IMG/VR virus record: IMGVR_UViG_3300045257_000098
Source: an uncultured virus (IMG/VR IMGVR_UViG_3300045257_000098)
Lineage: Duplodnaviria; Heunggongvirae; Uroviricota; Caudoviricetes
Strand: one strand, 5' to 3'
DNA length: 20,000 nt
Below, piece after piece: positions 2,887-19,357 of this stretch; the first letter of the stretch is position 1; each line of letters begins with the position of its first letter. Position numbers and translations under genes: made by a program. The notes below the pieces were generated by a model. That model made no database searches and was not told the origin of the DNA. It was given only the letters and a program-made list of their open reading frames with translations.

Positions 2887-3309
2887 TTATGAGGCATGGT
2901 AGAAGCGAATCGCCCCCAATTGAATCGTTAAGTTGTATAGCGAGAACCACGATTGATTAGCCCGCACCTCTTCCAACATAGCCGGTGGGAAACTCTCGTA
3001 GAAGATCGCTCCTCCAGTTGGATCGGTGCCGGGATTTTCCACCACGTCGCAGCACTCGATCCAAGCCTGCCAGTCCTGAGGCTGTGACCTCCGGGGAAAC
3101 TTCCAGGAATTGGGGTCTGTGACCGACATAGAGGAGAACTGATGAGGAGCCAGCACCACATCCTCAATGCCGCGCATTGCGGCCCCGTCAGCGAATCGGT
3201 TGCGGATTACCCATGCTACCCCCTGCTTTGCTGCTCTGGACTCGCCACGGGCCTCTCTCCACACGCAGAGGGCCATCATGAAATTGCCGTAATCGTCGAT
3301 CAGGCTCAC
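2887..3309 (-). CDS. Cell wall hydrolase, SleB/CwlJ (Hydrolase_2) family; candidate endolysin
   Basis: Motifs ALCVWREARGE, VAWVIRNR, V...HQFS, DPTGGAIFY; GTG start overlaps the upstream TGA, with a GAGG SD. Confidence 0.85.
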   Translation of the reverse strand: MSLIDDYGNFMMALCVWREARGESRAAKQGVAWVIRNRFADGAAMRGIEDVVLAPHQFSSMSVTDPNSWKFPRRSQPQDWQAWIECCDVVENPGTDPTGGAIFYESFPPAMLEEVRANQSWFSLYNLTIQLGAIRFYHAS

Positions 3310-3515
3310 TTGGTTTTCCTCTTTCGTCCCATCGCCAGTTCCTTCTCTCGCTCTTTGCGGATGCGGTACGGACTCCATACCGGCAGCTCATGATCCCGTA
3401 TCCATCGGCTCCGCATCCGCTCCAGCCGCCTATGTTCCTGCGCCGCTCTCTGCTTCCATCTCCGCTGATGCAGCCGATGCTTGACCGCAGACGGCCATTG
3501 GGATGCCCATGCCAT
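3306..3515 (-). CDS. Small basic hypothetical protein
   Basis: Fills the gap between its neighbours exactly; Arg/Lys-rich. Confidence 0.5.
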   Translation of the reverse strand: MAWASQWPSAVKHRLHQRRWKQRAAQEHRRLERMRSRWIRDHELPVWSPYRIRKEREKELAMGRKRKTK

Positions 3516-5274: not shown

Positions 5275-5667
5275 CTATCGTGCATTTTTCCTTCTCCACT
5301 GATCTGCATCTGGCCCCGCTGATACTGTAGGGGACGCTGGAGAAGTCAAATACTCGCCGTCTTCTGTGATTTCTTTTCGTGCCTGAAAGTTCGTGCCGAG
5401 CAGTTCAAATTCTCCGCTATAAGCCAGAACATCGTTCCACCTATAGCCATTCAGCCACGTAGCGGCGTGTGGACGGAAATCTGGCTTGCGTTTCATCATG
5501 TGGCAGTACTGTAATCGGAGGCCATCCATGATCTCGGAGAAAATTTCCTCCGAACGCACGATCTTCAGCCAGGCCTTGAAAGCGTCCTTCTTGGCCACTT
5601 TGCGCCAGTATATGGTCCAGAACAGGTAGAACCACTCAACTTTTACTTCAATCGGAATATCGTTCAT
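5275..5667 (-). CDS. Phage replication-initiator C-terminal-type domain protein (stand-alone)
   Basis: F..FW..YWRKVAKKDAFKAW.K ... FRPHAATWLNGYRWND matches the conserved C-terminal block of many phage replication proteins; GAGGAG SD before ATG 5667. Confidence 0.75.
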   Translation of the reverse strand: MNDIPIEVKVEWFYLFWTIYWRKVAKKDAFKAWLKIVRSEEIFSEIMDGLRLQYCHMMKRKPDFRPHAATWLNGYRWNDVLAYSGEFELLGTNFQARKEITEDGEYLTSPASPTVSAGPDADQWRRKNAR

Positions 5668-5689
5668 AGCGCGCTCCTCTATAACGCGA

Positions 5690-5734
5690 TTGGGCTGGTG
5701 CTGGGATAGAGGCCCAGCACCGTAGACCGCCCAA
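5690..5734 (-). promoter_or_regulatory. Strong hairpin in the 5' leader of the replication gene
   Basis: GGTGCTGGG 5697-5705 pairs with CCCAGCACC 5713-5721; TTGGGC 5690-5695 pairs with GCCCAA 5729-5734. Confidence 0.5.
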
Positions 5735-5780
5735 ATCTCTGGCACAACGGAGGATCAGTCCGACTACATGCACCGCAGAT

Positions 5781-8259: not shown

Positions 8260-8901
8260 TTACTTCCTCCTTCCCTTGCGTGCCAGCGATCCCAGTACTA
8301 GTAGCACGCCACCCAATAGTGATATAGAGGCTGGTTCTGGCACTGAGTCAAGTGCCGCATCGAAGCTGGCTGTACCCGCATTACGATTTCCCAGGTCGAT
8401 GAATGCGCCGATGGTTACCGAATCATCCCCAGAGCCAACCGCTCCGCTCGTAGCGCCGCTGAAGGCCGTGGTGTTGAATGTGAGCTCAGTTCCGATAGGT
8501 TTGGACATGTCGAACTTACCATTGCCCGTCCATGCACCGAATCCCAAGGTTTTTGATCCGGTGGACGATGCCGTTCCGCCGACATCAAAAACGAAACCTG
8601 CTGGCAGTGTGAGCCCGTCATCGCTAAAGAACATGAGCAGTGGGCCGGTCTGCGATTTGGTGGAATCTACCGATACCAGATCAAAGAATGGCAGATCGCC
8701 TTCGAGACCCGTAGTGACGTTGATATCCCAGCCGCCTACTGCCCCAATGTAAGTGACGACACCGGCCGTTGGATAAGAGTCCAGGCCAGAGCCATCGAGA
8801 ATATTGACCGTTGTTGTGCCGCTGATCAGTTCCAGTTCAGCGGTAGCAAAAAGCGACGGCACCGAGGCCGCCAGCATTACCGTTAGCGCGATGTGTTTCA
8901 T
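8260..8901 (-). CDS. PEP-CTERM sorting domain protein (exosortase substrate)
   Basis: Signal peptide MKHIALTVMLAASVPSLFA; Gly/Ser/Thr-rich beta body; C-terminus VPEPASISLLGGVLLVLGSLARKGRRK (PEP + TM helix + basic tail). Confidence 0.93.
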   Translation of the reverse strand: MKHIALTVMLAASVPSLFATAELELISGTTTVNILDGSGLDSYPTAGVVTYIGAVGGWDINVTTGLEGDLPFFDLVSVDSTKSQTGPLLMFFSDDGLTLPAGFVFDVGGTASSTGSKTLGFGAWTGNGKFDMSKPIGTELTFNTTAFSGATSGAVGSGDDSVTIGAFIDLGNRNAGTASFDAALDSVPEPASISLLGGVLLVLGSLARKGRRK

Positions 8902-9043
8902 ATTGACTAACCCCAATGAGCCACCGAAAACTTCCACAATACGTGGAAGAACCCATCAAACATGTCAACGTGAGAGAGGAGTTTCGATGGCTCATTCGGG
9001 AGGGGCATACGTTACCAGGCCTGCCCCTACCGAACTCTGTGCC

Positions 9044-12278: not shown

Positions 12279-12563
12279 CTATAGTCCTCGGGAAAGCCTA
12301 CTCTCGCATTTTTCTACTCTCTTGTAATCCTGATCTAGTTGTTCCTGAACGGACTTCAGGGCGAGTTTGAATCCCCGGTCTAGGTCCAGACTAGTCGTCA
12401 GTGAACCGTTCTTCACCCGATAGGCATCCAGGCCTTCTCCGGATGGTAAATTGACCGAGATCCAATAATCGTAGTGGTTAAACCGGGGCGAGGAACGGAG
12501 TTTCATGTCGTCCCAAACAATTGCGCTCATCATAGCTATGAGCAGCCAAATCAACGCGCGCAT
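12279..12563 (-). CDS. Membrane-anchored/exported hypothetical protein
   Basis: MRALIWLLIAMMSAIVW hydrophobic N-terminus; overlaps the end of the PEP-CTERM gene. Confidence 0.6.
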   Translation of the reverse strand: MRALIWLLIAMMSAIVWDDMKLRSSPRFNHYDYWISVNLPSGEGLDAYRVKNGSLTTSLDLDRGFKLALKSVQEQLDQDYKRVEKCESRLSRGL

Positions 12564-13162
12564 TTGCGCCCCCAGCCAGCCAGCCCCAGCAGTACCGCGC
12601 CAAGTAGCCAGATCGTAGCTGGTTCCGGCACGGGGTCGGGCCGTATTGTGGCAAATCGGGCAGGTCCAGCAGCCGTCAGGTTCCAACGCACATCATCCAG
12701 CCGTATCGAATGGTCGAACAACTCCTCAAAATCCCACGTGGCCGTCCCGGAGCCGCTACCTGCGAACGTAAAATCAATCAGCCCATCAGGCGTGGACCCG
12801 CCTCCTGATGCGTCCCAGGTCACCGGAACGGTCAAGGAACGGGTTTTATGTGGTGTCTTAGGCGCGGCGCCAGAAACGTTAATAAACCCGAACATGCTCA
12901 GGCCATCGGGATTGTTGAACGTGCTCGATTCTGCGAATGGCGAAAGCAGCCAGCTAAAATCCAGCCCGAACGTGGCTGGGGATGGGCCACAGCCGCCATC
13001 GGTACCGCCGCCTGCGGTCAGGTCATTGGCATAGACTATAGTCGAGCTCCAATCGCTCAGGTTGGAGCAGGCGAGGCCGGCGCCGGTGAGGGTGAATGAA
13101 TCGGCTTGGAGCAGGGGCACGAATGCCGCTGATAATACGAATTGCGCGACTCTGCTGTTCAT
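12551..13162 (-). CDS. PEP-CTERM sorting domain protein (exosortase substrate)
   Basis: Signal peptide MNSRVAQFVLSAAFVPLLQA-DSF; C-terminus PVPEPATIWLLGAVLLGLAGWGRKCAR; ATGA-coupled to the upstream gene. Confidence 0.92.
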   Translation of the reverse strand: MNSRVAQFVLSAAFVPLLQADSFTLTGAGLACSNLSDWSSTIVYANDLTAGGGTDGGCGPSPATFGLDFSWLLSPFAESSTFNNPDGLSMFGFINVSGAAPKTPHKTRSLTVPVTWDASGGGSTPDGLIDFTFAGSGSGTATWDFEELFDHSIRLDDVRWNLTAAGPARFATIRPDPVPEPATIWLLGAVLLGLAGWGRKCAR

Positions 13163-13410
13163 TTTGGTAGTCCTGTTTCGATTCTGTAATTGCCTATGAG
13201 GGCACAGAATCTCCATTTGCCTTTGGCATCCGCAATGAAAGGATTTGAAAGATAACTCGCCAAGAAGTTGTTTTCATTCCAGATCGTTGCCAGTTTTTGC
13301 TCCTGGTAGACCGTAACAATGCAGGTTTTGGAGGGGCAAGAGCTTTCCACGCAGAAATGAGAAGGTTGCTTTACCATTAGGAACGCCAATAAAGCTGCAA
13401 GTGTGTTCAC
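13159..13410 (-). CDS. Small protein resembling a tail-fibre/tailspike N-terminal attachment domain, with a hydrophobic N-terminus
   Basis: VTVY....LATIW.......SNPFIADAKG.W.F.A..G.Y pattern; GAGGAG SD, GTGA overlap. Confidence 0.5.
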   Translation of the reverse strand: MNTLAALLAFLMVKQPSHFCVESSCPSKTCIVTVYQEQKLATIWNENNFLASYLSNPFIADAKGKWRFCALIGNYRIETGLPK

Positions 13411-13991: not shown

Positions 13992-14025
13992 TTTGATATC
14001 CTCGTTTCATTGGTTGACTGTGAAT

Positions 14026-14120
14026 CCCAGGGCCATCCCGCCAGATACCGTCTGGAGTGTTCAGGGATGGCCTTGGGCCGTCCGGTGTCCCATCGCCAGA
14101 GCATGATGGGCTAACCGGAC
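14026..14120. other. Tandem long stem-loops in an intergenic gap
   Basis: 14-bp stem 14026-14039/14064-14077 with inner 14041-14045/14051-14055; second stem 14080-14086/14114-14120 with inner 14089-14094/14105-14110. Confidence 0.6.
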
Positions 14121-14284
14121 GAAACTTGTTCCTCCGAGGGCCACAGCCGCTCAAATTCTAGGGCCGCCGCGATGTAATCCTCCAGGCTCCATACTGAGCG
14201 CTTGCCCGCGCGCATGGAGCGATCTCCGGCATCGGTAGCAGCAGCGTGGGCGATTTCACGGGTGATGGGCATTTGGAGGGTCAT
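14111..14284 (-). CDS. Conserved-looking small phage early protein
   Basis: T.EIA.AAA.DAG.RSMR..KR..WS.EDY..A...F.RLWP; ATGA overlap. Confidence 0.7.
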   Translation of the reverse strand: MTLQMPITREIAHAAATDAGDRSMRAGKRSVWSLEDYIAAALEFERLWPSEEQVSSG

Positions 14285-14580
14285 GAGGATGCCCACCCAA
14301 AGAACAAATAGGTTTTCGGCTCATTCTCAATCTTTATGCAGCCCGCTGGTCCCCATTTGTCCGTTACGCGCTCGTCGTTTGCATCAAGTAAGTCCTCGGC
14401 CATTGATTCGGCTGATTTGGCATCCGGTGCCGATCCGATGAGGACAAAGGTTTGCTTTTCGGCAATGGATCCGGTGTAACCAGCGTGGCCGAAATCATAT
14501 TGCGCCTGCTTAACTGCCGACGCAAACGCCAGCTTCGATGTTTCGCCGATAGCCTTGGCGGTAAATTGTTCAGCGCCCAT
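14281..14580 (-). CDS. Conserved-looking phage early protein
   Basis: MGA..F...AF..AV.QA.YD.GH.GYTG.IAEK...DKWGPAGCI...YLFFGWASS; GAGGAG SD. Confidence 0.8.
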   Translation of the reverse strand: MGAEQFTAKAIGETSKLAFASAVKQAQYDFGHAGYTGSIAEKQTFVLIGSAPDAKSAESMAEDLLDANDERVTDKWGPAGCIKIENEPKTYLFFGWASS

Positions 14581-14923
14581 CTTCGTTCTCCTCTCCGATC
14601 CTGTTCTGATACTCGCTATCTCCTAGGTCCATGCGCGTGGTGCAGTCGTCGCAAAAGCGCTCACCGTGGGGGATGGGTGCGCCGCAGTCGCGGCAGTAGC
14701 TATTCTCTTTCACCTGAGATGCCGCTACTGCATGGGCGCAATCATAGGCACGGAAAGGTCTGGAGGTTTCCAGTGCCCTGTTGCGTAACGCAATCCACGC
14801 AGAAGATTTATCCAGGCCATCGTACTGCTCAAATACTTCGGCGGCCGTCTCGCGTTCATGTGGGCTCAGTGGGCTATTCTCCACGTGGGAGAAGGGGTTT
14901 ACGAGGTGCCAATTAGCTCTCAT
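14570..14923 (-). CDS. Hypothetical protein with C-terminal zinc ribbon
   Basis: YCRDCGAPI....RFCDDC. Confidence 0.7.
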   Translation of the reverse strand: MRANWHLVNPFSHVENSPLSPHERETAAEVFEQYDGLDKSSAWIALRNRALETSRPFRAYDCAHAVAASQVKENSYCRDCGAPIPHGERFCDDCTTRMDLGDSEYQNRIGEENEDGR

Positions 14924-15119
14924 TTGACCCCCTTAAACGCATTCAGCACGAGAATGGCAACATCAACAGGCAAGCTGCGCAGTTCGATCTGTACGGAGTC
15001 ATCGCCCGTCATGCGAACGCTGCCATAACCACGATCATATCCGCCACTTGCGCGGCATAATACAGCCGATGGTATTCGGCGATCTGTTCGAGTGCTGGGG
15101 TTGCTTGTACGTGTGTCAT
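14920..15119 (-). CDS. Probably two coupled mini-ORFs (15009-15119, 36 aa; 14920-15012, 30 aa)
   Basis: GAAAGGA SD precedes ATG 15119 (MTHVQATPALEQ...), whose TGA overlaps ATG 15012 (MTGDDSVQ...). The single ORF 14920-15132 is an alternative. Confidence 0.4.
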
Positions 15120-15138
15120 GGTGTCCTTTCATTGGGGG

Positions 15139-15381
15139 TTAGACTGCTGTCTGCCTGAACGCTGGACCGTAGGTGGAGCGAATGAACTCCGCCGCACCTT
15201 GCGGGTCGATCTTCGTCAGGTGAGCGCACGTCATGTCATAGGCGTGCATGATATTGGAGTACAGATACCCACGGTCGGTGAGTTCTTCTTCAGCCCGGGC
15301 GGCTGCGTAACCGGATTCGCGTACCAGGATGCGTGCCGACTGCCTTAATGATTCCATTTGCTCACGTTCACTGTGTGTCAT
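15139..15381 (-). CDS. Hypothetical protein, first gene of the early operon (leaderless)
   Basis: TATACT (15388-15393, minus)-N6-ATG 15381; MTHSEREQMESLRQ... Confidence 0.65.
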   Translation of the reverse strand: MTHSEREQMESLRQSARILVRESGYAAARAEEELTDRGYLYSNIMHAYDMTCAHLTKIDPQGAAEFIRSTYGPAFRQTAV

Positions 15382-15428
15382 GAACAGAGTATATGGCAGA
15401 TTTCTGTGAGATAAATCAGAATGCAACG

Positions 15429-15441
15429 TAAGCTATTGACT
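15429..15441 (-). promoter_or_regulatory. IHF-like site (1 mismatch)
   Basis: AGTCAATAGCTTA vs consensus WATCAANNNNTTR; part of a 20-bp near-copy of 15817-15835. Confidence 0.45.
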
Positions 15442-15526
15442 TAACTGGAGATATAATTATTGGAGGAAATGCACGTGCCAGGATACAAACCGCTAAATAT
15501 AGTGCTATCAACGGTTCAGAGATGCG

Positions 15527-15727
15527 CTACTTACCTGAGCTCTTACGACCGCCCTTATGGAATCCTTTGAGCGTTTCAGCCAACCGTGCCCGCTCACCTT
15601 CTTTGCCGCCCTTCTTAGCGGCAGCTACTAGCTTGTCGGACGGGATCTTCTTCCCTTGTGGCACGCCAAGTTCTTTGTGCAACGCGCCCGGCTTCTTTAT
15701 GGCGCCCGCAATCCAGTGATCTGCCAT
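15527..15727 (-). CDS. Small basic phage protein (WI..AIKKPGALH..LGVP.GKKIP type)
   Basis: MADHWIAGAIKKPGALHKELGVPQGKKIPSDKLVAAAKKGGKEGERARLAETLKGFHK...; a motif I recognise from uncultured tailed phages, function unknown. Confidence 0.8.
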   Translation of the reverse strand: MADHWIAGAIKKPGALHKELGVPQGKKIPSDKLVAAAKKGGKEGERARLAETLKGFHKGGRKSSGK

Positions 15728-15798
15728 TATGCGGCCTTGCCTTTCTCTGCTGGCTTCTCTGGCTCTGCCGGTACCAGCTGTGCGCAATCGAGCGATTT
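15650..15798 (+). repeat. 149-bp direct repeat, copy 1
   Basis: Identical base for base to 15940-16088 (CTTCCCTTGTGG...AGCGATTT). Confidence 0.97.
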
Positions 15799-15816
15799 CG
15801 ATCCGAAAGATCCACC

Positions 15817-15829
15817 TAAGCTATTGATT
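15817..15829 (-). promoter_or_regulatory. IHF consensus binding site
   Basis: Minus strand AATCAATAGCTTA is a perfect WATCAANNNNTTR match. Confidence 0.6.
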
Positions 15830-15883
15830 AACTGGCACTTTGCCGCGACCCCTTCAGCGTTCGGTGGCAATGAAATTTTTCTC

Positions 15884-15919
15884 GATAGCACGTGTTAATC
15901 CTGATTAACACGTGCTATC
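15884..15919. repeat. Perfect 17-bp inverted repeat with 2-bp core
   Basis: GATAGCACGTGTTAATC-CT-GATTAACACGTGCTATC. Confidence 0.97.
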
Positions 15920-15921
15920 CT

Positions 15922-16017
15922 CTATTTTGGTCGCCCGAGCTTCCCTTGTGGCACGCCAAGTTCTTTGTGCAACGCGCCCGGCTTCTTTATGGCGCCCGCA
16001 ATCCAGTGATCTGCCAT
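15922..16017 (-). pseudogene. Truncated duplicate of the small basic protein gene (31 aa)
   Basis: MADHWIAGAIKKPGALHKELGVPQGK-LGRPK*; leaves the repeat at 15940 and stops just before the palindrome. Confidence 0.75.
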
Positions 16018-16088
16018 TATGCGGCCTTGCCTTTCTCTGCTGGCTTCTCTGGCTCTGCCGGTACCAGCTGTGCGCAATCGAGCGATTT
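15940..16088 (+). repeat. 149-bp direct repeat, copy 2
   Basis: Identical to 15650-15798; offset 290 bp. Confidence 0.97.
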
Positions 16089-16442
16089 AATGAACTCCCG
16101 CAGTGCTTTGGGCACATAATGCACGCCAGCAGGTGTTAGCGCCGTGATGCTGTACTTGCCGACGCGCTTATAGTCCACTTTCCGCGAGTTCATGCGCGGT
16201 TGCGTGCCAACGTACAGCACAATGTGATACTTAGCCGGCAAGATGATCTTTCGACCGTTGGTTTCGCGTGGCGCGCGCACTGCCGAACGAAGGTCGATTG
16301 CTGGTACGTAATCTGGCTGCACTTGGCTTGCAGCGTACCACAGACTGTACGTTGAAGCAAAGCGCAACGTTGGGTGGAAGTACCGCCGAAGGCGCAACGT
16401 CCAGTGGGCTGGACGATTGTCCAACGGCATGTCTGTGACCAT
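16017..16442 (-). CDS. Hypothetical basic protein
   Basis: 141-aa ORF whose TAA overlaps the next ATG (TAATG); its 3' end lies inside the repeat. Confidence 0.65.
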   Translation of the reverse strand: MVTDMPLDNRPAHWTLRLRRYFHPTLRFASTYSLWYAASQVQPDYVPAIDLRSAVRAPRETNGRKIILPAKYHIVLYVGTQPRMNSRKVDYKRVGKYSITALTPAGVHYVPKALREFIKSLDCAQLVPAEPEKPAEKGKAA

Positions 16443-16920
16443 TGTCCCATTGTCCTGTCTGTCGCTATCTCAGCTGCACGCTAGGCCCACTCAGCCAGGT
16501 GCAGGATCAGCGCGCCGGCCGCTTGAGCACTACCCACCTTCCGATGTTCATGTCACGACCAGGCGCGTTGTTTTAACACGTTGTACGCGCTTACGAGTTG
16601 TCTGTGGGGGAGAAGGGGCGAGTGGCGGGGGCATCTTCTCACGAGCTGGCAAGTTTATTTTTTTGCAGTTTATTTTTTACCGGTCGGGCTTAGGGAGGTG
16701 CGGTGAGGGCACTACGAAGCCCGGTGGTCAGGGGGGCCGCAGATGAGGCAGAGTGCGGGATCGCAGGGGCGACAGGTCACGATATTAGTCTAATGACAAG
16801 AGCAGTGGAACACAAGATGCCTCCGCGATAAAGGCGTCGGAGGAAGGTGATTTTAAAGACACGTGTATCTTCCGTAGGTTTCAAGATGCACTCGATCCAC
16901 GGGGTGCCGTGGCGGCCTGC

Positions 16921-17430
16921 TTACGCTACAGCCTGTCCATTGTCCGCACGGTTGCCGTTATTCACCGGCTTGGTCGCGGGGGAACTTTGTTGCAGTGCTG
17001 CATCTCCCTCTGTAGGGTCTTCCGGCACTGGCACATCGCAGATGGCCGTCACGTGTGACTCAGCCCTGAGTATGCGCTGACATTCAATTGAAATTGCGTA
17101 AACTACCTCATTGGTCCAATGCTCGACCATAGCTGAGGAAACGTGAAAGACTTTGAACCCGTGAGATCGTAGTACGGCATCTCGCGCCATGTCCTTTTCG
17201 ATCTGCGCGGGTTGGAAATGATAACCGCCGTCGACCTCAACGATCAGTTTAGTTTTTGGGCAGTAAAAATCGGCAATCCAGCCGAGGATCACGGCCTGTT
17301 GTCGGAAACGGAATCCGGTCTGTTTGTCTCGTAGACGGTTCCAGAGAATGCGTTCCGATGGGGTTGTATTTCGGCGCATTTGACGCGCCTTTACGAACTT
17401 TCTTGGCGGGCAGTTATTCCTGAAGGCCAT
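16921..17430 (-). CDS. DUF559 (Vsr-like) endonuclease domain protein
   Basis: AR.MRR..T.SE..LW..LR..Q.GF.FR.Q..I.G.I.DFYC....LIVEVDGGYH......D..RD..L...G.KV. Confidence 0.9.
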   Translation of the reverse strand: MAFRNNCPPRKFVKARQMRRNTTPSERILWNRLRDKQTGFRFRQQAVILGWIADFYCPKTKLIVEVDGGYHFQPAQIEKDMARDAVLRSHGFKVFHVSSAMVEHWTNEVVYAISIECQRILRAESHVTAICDVPVPEDPTEGDAALQQSSPATKPVNNGNRADNGQAVA

Positions 17431-17734
17431 TGGGTACGGGTGCAGGGTGGGCTATGGGTTTCTCGTGTCCCCCACTGCTAGCTGCCGTTGGTAGTGGATT
17501 GCCTATGATTCCGTTTCTGAGAGAGTTTCCGTAATCAAGGAACTGACTATCACTAAAGTAAGGGATTCCCCTTACGGTCTGTACAAGAATATCAAGATCA
17601 TGTTCTGGAACCTGGATGCCCCACTGTGTGTTTACTGTTTCTTTAGGAAGGAATCGTGCTCCTACCGGGGCCAAAAGACTGGCGAACCATCCGCGTCTGG
17701 TGATATTGGGAATCGGATTGTCGGTGTTTATCAT
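17414..17734 (-). CDS. Hypothetical protein with twin-arginine-like N-terminal motif
   Basis: ITRRGWFASLLAPVG resembles the S/T-R-R-x-F-L motif, but the hydrophobic segment is short. Confidence 0.5.
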   Translation of the reverse strand: MINTDNPIPNITRRGWFASLLAPVGARFLPKETVNTQWGIQVPEHDLDILVQTVRGIPYFSDSQFLDYGNSLRNGIIGNPLPTAASSGGHEKPIAHPAPVPNGLQE

Positions 17735-17862
17735 TCGCCCTAGCCGACGTTGAAGGCGGGATGGTGGGCTAGCACCAGAGCCCGCCTATTCCTGTTGAGA
17801 GAACAGTGACAGATCAATATTGCTCATTTCTTTTTCCTTTGTCAAGTGTATACTTGGATTCG

Positions 17863-18522
17863 ATGCCAAGTTCTGTGTCTCAACCTCACAAGCCATCCAA
17901 AAACTTAGTCGATATCCTTACGGACGCAGTGGCCGAGATTCTGGATGACCACAATTCTAAGATCTTGCGCCGCCTAGATGCGATTGAGGAAGATATCGAG
18001 GAGTTGACAACGGCGGTAGCGGCTTTACCGACTCTGGAGCAGATTCGGCAAATCATTGAGGTAATGCTTGGAATCCCAGGATTCCCGGTGAAATTCGATG
18101 TGACCATTACCCAAGCGACACAACAAATTCAAAAGGAGTACGACATGGCTGCAAAAGTTGCAAAGAAACATTCGGTTTCACTAGAGATTCTGGAGAACGG
18201 TACCGTTCGTTATACGGCCACACCGACCGACGCCAACGGCAATCCGACCACCCTTCCGGCTGGTTCACCTCCAGCTACATGGGCGTCAAGTGATCCAGAC
18301 CTGACGCTGGCCGCCGATCCTACCGATACCAGCGGCTTTAACCTGTTGCAAATCGGCACGGCTGGAACGACTCCGGCGACGGGAGTGGTGGCGACGATTA
18401 CCGATACCATCACTAACCCGGCCGATGGTAGCGTTTCGACTATCACAGGCGCGGCTGATCCGGTAAACATCGTGCCGGCGCCTCCCGGATTTCCGACTTC
18501 GTTCGTGGTCACAGAAGCGTAA
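17863..18522 (+). CDS. Coiled-coil + Ig-like domain protein, with an internal in-frame start at 18145
   Basis: Heptad-rich N-half; C-half VRYTATPTDANGNP...TWASSDP is Ig-like; AAGGAG SD precedes internal ATG 18145. Confidence 0.7.
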   Translation: MPSSVSQPHKPSKNLVDILTDAVAEILDDHNSKILRRLDAIEEDIEELTTAVAALPTLEQIRQIIEVMLGIPGFPVKFDVTITQATQQIQKEYDMAAKVAKKHSVSLEILENGTVRYTATPTDANGNPTTLPAGSPPATWASSDPDLTLAADPTDTSGFNLLQIGTAGTTPATGVVATITDTITNPADGSVSTITGAADPVNIVPAPPGFPTSFVVTEA

Positions 18523-18568: not shown

Positions 18569-19357
18569 ATGCGTACTGTTGCCAAGTTCGGGTGGATACC
18601 GGATCTCCCGGATCAAAGGGACCGTCGATCCACGTTAAGGCCCCGTTCGGCCCCTCTGCCACCCAGCCTAAGCCTCCAGTCTGCCATGCCTCCCGTTTAC
18701 GACCAGGGACAACTGGGGAGTTGCGTGGCCAATGCCACCGCAGCCATCGTGGATTATGAGCGAAAACGCCAGGGTCTGCGGTTTATGACTCCATCCCGGT
18801 TATTTATTTACTGGAATGCGCGTGATCTGGAGCAGTCTACGGACTCGGATTCCGGATGCATGATCCGGGATGCTATGAAAAGCCTGGATAAGCAGGGTGT
18901 GTGCGTAGAGAGCTTTTGGCACTATACGGAACCATTTGACCGCCAGCCTAAATCTTTGTGCTATTCGACGGCTATCCGCCATCAGACGCTCCAATACTCT
19001 GCTCCATCCCAGTCCGCTATGGCACTCAAGTTGGGCCTGGCGGCTGGCATCCCATTTGTGTTCGGATTCAGCGTTTACGAGAGCTTTATGTCCGATCACG
19101 TAGCACAGACTGGGGTGGTGCCGATGCCGTCTCCGAGCGAGGGCCAGATTGGGGGACATGCAGTGGCGGGGATCGGTTATGATGACCTGTCGGGACCATC
19201 CGCGCTAGGATCTAGGCCACCAGTGCCGAGTTTCCTGTGCCGCAATAGCTGGGGAACGGCGTGGGGGCTTCAGGGGCATTTCTGGATGCCATTCGAGTAT
19301 GTGCTTAGTCCGGATCTGAGTGACGATTTCTGGCAAATTACTTCGGAGGAGGGATAA
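18569..19357 (+). CDS. Papain-like cysteine peptidase, family C1A
   Basis: GWIPDLPDQRD N-terminus; DQGQLGSCVANA (oxyanion Q, catalytic C); GGHAV (H); RNSWG..WG..G.FW (N). Confidence 0.93.
   Translation: MRTVAKFGWIPDLPDQRDRRSTLRPRSAPLPPSLSLQSAMPPVYDQGQLGSCVANATAAIVDYERKRQGLRFMTPSRLFIYWNARDLEQSTDSDSGCMIRDAMKSLDKQGVCVESFWHYTEPFDRQPKSLCYSTAIRHQTLQYSAPSQSAMALKLGLAAGIPFVFGFSVYESFMSDHVAQTGVVPMPSPSEGQIGGHAVAGIGYDDLSGPSALGSRPPVPSFLCRNSWGTAWGLQGHFWMPFEYVLSPDLSDDFWQITSEEG

Follow-up and report, generated by a model that had tools for sequence, protein, structure and literature searches.

Classic duplications in phages lambda and T4, and the scars left at mosaic boundaries in lambdoid phages and mycobacteriophages, are products of illegitimate or unequal recombination. 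Single-crossover integration of the Campbell type classically yields an insert with homology on both sides. Serine-integrase attP sites and the circle junctions of IS30/IS21-type elements share a geometry of inverted arms about an asymmetric 2-nt centre; telRL-type protelomerase targets need dyad symmetry through the centre. Replication template switching can turn an imperfect hairpin into a perfect one; in the FoSTeS/MMBIR type with filler insertion, or as quasipalindrome mutation, it is the subject of four reports (PMC7202029, PMC7643612, PMC3678771, 10.1101/2023.04.19.537475).

We analyzed a locus in an uncultured soil phage at which two copies of a 149-nt direct repeat (R) bracket a spacer (S) carrying a perfect palindrome. 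The window is the whole 20-kb stretch of DNA analyzed here. The original prediction had taken the locus for a compound site, namely a joined genome terminus, an attachment site or an insertion-sequence circle junction. We favor another account, to which we assign a probability of about 0.6: R-S-R would be a recent partial tandem duplication with a heterologous filler, which arose when an unequal or illegitimate exchange took place at a mosaic boundary and which can be lost again via its own repeats. R-S-R would then be one more instance of an event already known in kind, and no new class of system.

The locus shares several properties with phage tandem duplications, including exact head-to-tail repeats, two intact genes, a position at a module boundary, expected instability and a possibly mixed population. 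Unlike those duplications, it contains a 141-nt filler that is 56% identical to adjacent sequence and includes a perfect 36-bp palindrome. Template-switch products resemble it in combining a duplication with a short insert, possible microhomology at the joints (AAATC; AAG) and a perfect hairpin; they differ in that the filler in S is not templated nearby on either strand. Campbell integration offers the same order of homology, insert and homology, reversible by the same recombination, whereas the circle implied here measures just 290 bp and neither a site-specific recombinase nor an att core accompanies it. The inverted arms about an asymmetric 2-nt centre recall serine-integrase attP and IS30/IS21 junctions; unlike these, the arms here have duplicated phage genes on both sides, are possibly dispensable in part of the population, show no alternative junctions and lie in a window without a recombinase or transposase.

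Results

A Coupled Gene Pair Is Partly Duplicated Head to Tail

Along the direction of transcription the locus reads gene A, a truncated copy of gene B (B′), S, an orphan tail of A (A′), full-length B, an intergenic region (IG) and the next gene, with all local genes on the minus strand (Table 1). The two copies of R are 100% identical over 149 nt, are arranged head-to-tail with a start-to-start spacing of 290 and represent the sole long direct repeat in the window; the identical repeats and the 141-nt spacer thus stand as first described. Each copy contains the last 24 codons of A, the TAATG in which the A stop overlaps the B start (a translationally coupled arrangement) and the first 26 codons of B, and tblastn of R returned A residues 119-141 together with B residues 1-26. 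R has a GC content of 57.7% vs 47.5% for S.

B′ and A′ are exact partial copies, and full-length A and B are both intact. Removal of one R plus S (290 bp) regenerates A-TAATG-B on the minus strand, which bears out the earlier statement that excision leaves a seamless operon. R-S-R therefore has the makeup by which a duplication is recognized: exact, contiguous, native direct repeats with intact flanking genes.

The two genes differ in their distribution. Three relatives of A, conserved mainly in the C-terminal third, were the only ones found among 5.8 billion clusters, and none was found in the viral_contigs and genome_contigs collections. B has 5409 matches (E<=0.001), which are viral proteins of 57-66 aa with ~80% identity, and in the Atlas it falls into unnamed Uroviricota clusters. 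Comparison with Pfam, NCBIfam, PADLOC and PDB sequences gave no match for either A or B. For the 54-aa ORF crossing S the only match was the ORF itself, and on this ground we rejected it as a genuine short paralogue of A.

Table 1. Coordinates of the duplicated locus, its assembly-graph nodes and named genes of the window
Feature	Position	Strand	Basis or remark
Gene A, 141 aa, ORFan family, conserved C-terminal third	16017..16442	-	
R, upstream copy in transcription sense: A end and truncated B′ start	15940..16088	-	Exact repeat; tblastn
B′, truncated B: 26 native residues, LGRPK and stop	15922..16017	-	
Spacer S, 141 nt: B′ end (…LGRPK and stop), palindrome hairpin, unique sequence, 20-nt box	15799..15939	-	Own graph node
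Perfect 17-2-17 palindrome	15884..15919	.	Starts 3 nt past the B′ stop, minus strand
54-aa ORF: GTG start inside the palindrome, in frame into the A′ tail, ends at the TAATG overlapping B	15727..15891	-	
20-nt box CCAGTTAATCAATAGCTTA in S, includes a chance-level IHF consensus	15817..15835	-	Local alignment
R, downstream copy: orphan A tail (A′), then full-length B start	15650..15798	-	Exact repeat
Gene B, 66 aa, intact	15527..15727	-	Small viral protein from a very large conserved family
IG after B, 145 nt: 10-bp hairpin soon past the stop, GATAGCAC, CACGTGC, box, AAATC	15382..15526	-	
Paralogous 20-nt box CCAGTTAAGTCAATAGCTTA in IG	15429..15448	-	Local score 35
Next gene beyond IG	15381->15139	-	
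Graph node	15000-15679		Depth 14
Graph node, 201 nt: S extended at both ends by exactly 30 nt of R	15769-15969		Depth 8.6
Graph node, R as a single unbranched 149 nt	15940-16088		Depth 23
Graph node	16059-16800		Depth 16.6
Endolysin	2890-3378		
Replication-initiation-like protein	5278-5745		

The Repeat Coincides with a Mosaic Boundary

A related locus, L001, is the sole relative with DNA for comparison. Its A protein shares 72% amino acid identity with A of the window, and the gene that follows is an unrelated one that starts MTTTAVVLKADVERYG and overlaps A through ATGA (L001 3513-3582), whereas here A passes into B through TAATG (16017-16019). The gene joined to A thus changes between the two phages, which makes the A end a mosaic boundary. 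The DNA of the A tail is 88.7% identical over 71 nt vs 78.5% region-wide, making it the best-conserved local DNA, and B has differing neighbors in the 10 loci that we examined out of 80 viral B loci. A conserved A tail with varying neighbors marks R as a conserved linker within a rearrangement hotspot.

The Repeat and Spacer Are Recovered in an Independent Assembly Graph

One soil-metagenome run, possibly the source sample, has 99% of the sampled words of 15300-16500. We read the structure from the Logan contigs of this run (k=31), an independent assembly that gives contig-level evidence for one sample. R appears once in this graph, entered from the body of A or from S and exited toward S or the rest of B, and S occupies a node of its own (Table 1). 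Over 15000-16800 the k=31 contigs show no differing letters or indels and no further joints, nor do starts or ends pile up or hang loose; a complete R therefore flanks every S on both sides. Depth is also balanced, since R depth minus S depth gives 14.4, near the flank depth, and flow through R is conserved (23 ~ 14.4 + 8.6).

These observations bear on the concern, raised in the original prediction, that the structure is a product of assembly, circularisation or chimeric reads. The concern arises from the lengths themselves, 149 being near a common read length and 141 near a common maximal k, and from the occurrence of the sequence in one run only, perhaps the source. We nevertheless consider an artefact highly improbable: A different assembler at k=31 gives an R of exactly 149 nt and joins it to S at either end with depth 8.6, flow is conserved, and sequence identity rather than k determines where the repeats begin and end. 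Recovery of the two nodes at k=31 means that 149 and 141 stem from the reads and not from assembler k or read length. For the single run that contains R-S-R, the structure is a real feature of the reads.

Depth ratios differ from those of a fixed insertion, which would give 1 for S/flank and 2 for R/flank; contig depths in the one run give 0.56 and 1.49, respectively. These values hint that about half of the genomes lack the cassette, that is, carry a collapsed single-R allele. The S/flank ratio amounts to a ~2-sigma hint: It comes from one node of 201 nt, the two flanks are already 17% apart (14 vs 16.6), and the palindrome may depress coverage. Perfect 149-bp repeats permit loop-out, so the population is probably a mixture of both alleles, and removal of the 290-bp unit by ordinary homologous recombination would explain the depth pattern. 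The fallback of the original prediction, a 290-bp excisable cassette, is compatible with these ratios as far as excision goes; the simplest route is homologous recombination, not the site-specific one.

The Palindrome Has the Geometry of a Recombination Site

The palindrome consists of two 17-nt arms (15884-15900 and 15903-15919) that are 100% complementary about a central CT, in agreement with the first description, and it is the only perfect local palindrome across the window. At <=3 mismatches the arm occurs at these two places only (0.03 expected; 0 of 200 shuffles reach two occurrences), and no arm sub-motifs or operator half-sites recur elsewhere in the 20 kb. The other elements first assigned to S fared less well. 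A minus-strand match to the IHF consensus WATCAANNNNTTR does lie at 15817-15829, at chance level: There is 1 match vs 0.56 expected, 87 of 200 shuffles contain at least one, and the consensus is broken in the paralogous box of IG (AGTCAA), so that the match is neither beyond chance nor conserved. An imperfect hairpin described at 15840-15870 contributes a minor part of the predicted fold.

Perfect 17-nt inverted arms about an asymmetric CT fit a crossover or terminus site, whether a serine-recombinase attP, an abutted-end junction of a transposon circle, a protelomerase target, or a linear genome joined at ends with 17-bp terminal inverted repeats and subterminal direct repeats, and a cognate recombinase could lie in the ~45 kb of the 64,965-bp contig outside the window. 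This origin is very unlikely in view of the surroundings. Among the 71 ORFs of the window (PHROGs on 49) there is no recombinase, transposase, protelomerase or terminase, and none of the 71 carries a Resolvase/Recombinase domain. The graph is unbranched, and its contigs show the joined form continuous across the palindrome centre (15901/15902) without an alternative junction; contigs of the S node, which can miss rare forms, contain no recombinant junctions (attL/attR, host) at the central dinucleotide.

The flanks and the centre of the palindrome point the same way. The arms reach R, and with it the duplicated coding DNA of A and B, after 36 and 85 nt, rather than a DDE transposase as at an IS30/IS21-type junction, and the asymmetric CT centre is unsuited to a protelomerase. 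The palindrome lies inside a translationally coupled operon and may be absent from part of the population, and the accompanying IHF match is at chance level. The palindrome and box have no exact match in the viral_contigs or genome_contigs collections (viral, prokaryote). Given no enzyme among the 71 ORFs of the window, an unbranched graph, coding flanks and no recurring motif, the joined-terminus, attachment-site and circle-junction claims retain their geometry alone.

The Spacer Partly Resembles a B Flank and Contains a Stable Hairpin

S and IG share an order of elements: GCTC(A/G)GG…TAG, which closes a B-type frame, then a post-stop hairpin, GATAGCAC, CACGTGC and the box. S spans 141 nt, and its collinear counterpart, which runs from the final B codons as far as the AAATC of IG, spans ~139-142 nt. 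The box has the common form CCAGTTAA(G)TCAATAGCTTA, and its alignment scores 35 vs 15.4 +/- 2.3 for shuffled sequence (0 of 1000 shuffles reach it), the best place window-wide. Over the whole length 79 of 141 columns are identical (56%), a score reached by 43 of 1000 shuffles. Because the likeness is weak outside the box, the view of S as a homologue of a B flank depends mainly on one 20-nt block and its position. Judged by this comparison, S would resemble a B flank, yet appears to be no copy of this phage's own flank. The IG counterpart of the palindrome is confined to GATAGCAC … GTGCAT.

Several searches for a template or a further copy of S gave no match. Exact matches of >=8 nt between S and nearby sequence on both strands number 17 vs 8.8 expected (max 18), and we rejected a patchwork of locally templated pieces as not above chance. 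S has 0 blastn matches in the 81 related loci compared, the 14000-18000 stretch that includes it has no near match among phage records, and Rfam assigns it to no family, with sub-threshold miRNA-like matches to the bare hairpin only. A candidate third copy at ~2503-2552 was rejected as a gappy alignment within coding sequence. At the joints of S, R begins AAATCG at the S|R joint, the AAATC of IG lies ~9 nt past the last aligned base, and AAG is present at the b|S joint. These matches are short, with an estimated chance of ~2% for a 5-mer within 20 nt; AAATC is a possible microhomology at the novel joint.

As RNA, the palindrome hairpin has an energy of -23.9 kcal/mol on the minus strand and -23.4 on the plus strand (-16.3 as DNA). 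S folds far better than its shuffles (z -4.0 and -5.0; 0 of 200 equal it). A maintained regulatory cassette would account for such a fold. In that case the hairpin and box would stand before B and the long downstream operon, the hairpin may act in termination or attenuation or be a site of the RNase III type, and gain or loss of S through recombination of one R copy with the other would be a population-level switch. The very stable hairpin close behind the B′ stop speaks for this possibility, as do the hairpin and same box at equivalent positions in IG, the TAATG coupling into B that is kept behind the 54-aa ORF, and a depth pattern that suggests coexistence of both states.

We hold the regulatory cassette to be unlikely, with several features of the hairpin and box counting against it. 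Behind the hairpin, the sense (minus) strand has GAGAAAAAUUUC in place of a U-tract (the tail on this strand is GAGAAAAATTTC). The terminator scan called the hairpin on the plus strand only, with the tail CTCTATTTTG, antisense to all local genes, where no gene needs a terminator. Half-sites and box recur nowhere else in the window, and one phage in one run supplies no conservation evidence.

A more specific proposal is that R-S-R forms a recombination-driven on/off cassette in the phage early operon, a form of bet-hedging via homologous repeats. If true, B′, the hairpin and the box would interrupt transcription or coupling into B and the ~13-kb downstream operon, and the switch would be built on homologous repeats rather than on a site-specific recombinase. 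We regard it as improbable.

Promoter-like elements were also considered. With just two copies in the window and none across the 81 related loci, the box was rejected as a dispersed phage promoter. No sigma-70 promoters were called in S; the one call in 15000-17000 (15475-15503) compares with 1.2 expected. A GATAGC-type motif upstream of genes was set aside as not significant (3 matches vs 1.0-1.2 expected). Within IG, 15393-15406 has a 14-nt inverted match (86%) to the B start ATGGCAGAT… (15714-15727 and 16004-16017), probably by chance.

Partial Duplication with Filler as the Probable Origin

Exact identity of R combined with ~44% divergence between S and IG cannot be produced by drift in place. 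We infer instead the following order of events for the partial duplication. The duplicated unit would be the A tail, B and the 3′ flank of B, of which the upstream copy lost most of B. S, a heterologous filler like a B flank, would replace the native 3′ flank in this upstream copy, its donor probably being a diverged, unsampled relative present during co-infection. R, as the best-conserved local DNA at the mosaic boundary, is where related phages would be expected to recombine, and an unequal or illegitimate exchange there would give A-B′-S-A′-B with both full genes intact. Any subsequent homologous recombination between the 149-bp repeats would loop out R plus S (290 bp) and return the locus to A-TAATG-B.

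The palindrome would enter this scheme as a feature of the filler, maybe the post-stop hairpin of the donor's B-type gene, perhaps perfected by a replication template switch. A perfect 36-bp palindrome together with a conserved box may also mean that S has been kept for function, which a pure scar would leave unexplained.

A donor for S was not found in the collections searched (81 loci, viral_contigs, genome_contigs and phage records), and the foreignness of S to all of these sequences would suit a Campbell-type single crossover, in which circular or concatemeric foreign DNA with R next to S recombined into the R of the phage. Such an integration classically leaves an arrangement like R-S-R, in which the repeats are exact and the genes on either side intact. 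This route seems doubtful on physical grounds, since a 290-bp circle is unlikely and a larger donor would leave >141 nt. The joints also fit an unequal phage exchange better: The start of S extends the B frame to a B-like end, and the end of S lies near AAATC.

Read as a partial duplication with filler, the locus would be a phage recombination intermediate at a module boundary, possibly segregating in nature. Such intermediates are rarely seen because duplications are short-lived. Mixed alleles, if true, would allow the turnover of duplications in nature to be estimated for an uncultured soil phage. The locus also serves as a worked example in which an apparent compound site resolves into gene fragments in a mosaic hotspot, with binding sites at chance level.

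Wider Window and Neighboring Genes

The window resembles part of a tailed-phage genome and consists mostly of ORFans; beyond the genes in Table 1, those that could be named include nucleases and a papain-like peptidase.

Upstream of A, comparison of 17064-17642 with L001 2375-2469 shows that L001 is without the nuclease core of a DUF559 (Vsr-like) endonuclease gene and also without most of the 106-aa gene that lies upstream. In L001, a 99-aa ORF fuses the N-terminus of the 106-aa gene product to the C-terminal part of the DUF559 protein (53% identity, residues 95-169). The DUF559 protein has a weak PADLOC "homing endonuclease" match and may be a mobile free-standing nuclease, situated ~480 nt from the duplication on the upstream side of A. 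The 478 nt between its gene and A (16443-16920) contain no convincing ORF, are ~78% conserved with L001 and include a terminator-like hairpin on the minus strand (16835-16819).

At 18569-19354 on the plus strand, opposite to the local genes and past a divergent junction at ~17735-17805, lies a gene for a papain-family (Peptidase_C1) cysteine protease. Two minus-strand ORFs, 8263-8937 and 12554-13216, end in a PEP-CTERM motif (E 0.001 and 8e-6, the second above the Pfam cut-off), which suggests that the host has an exosortase system and that phage proteins make use of it.
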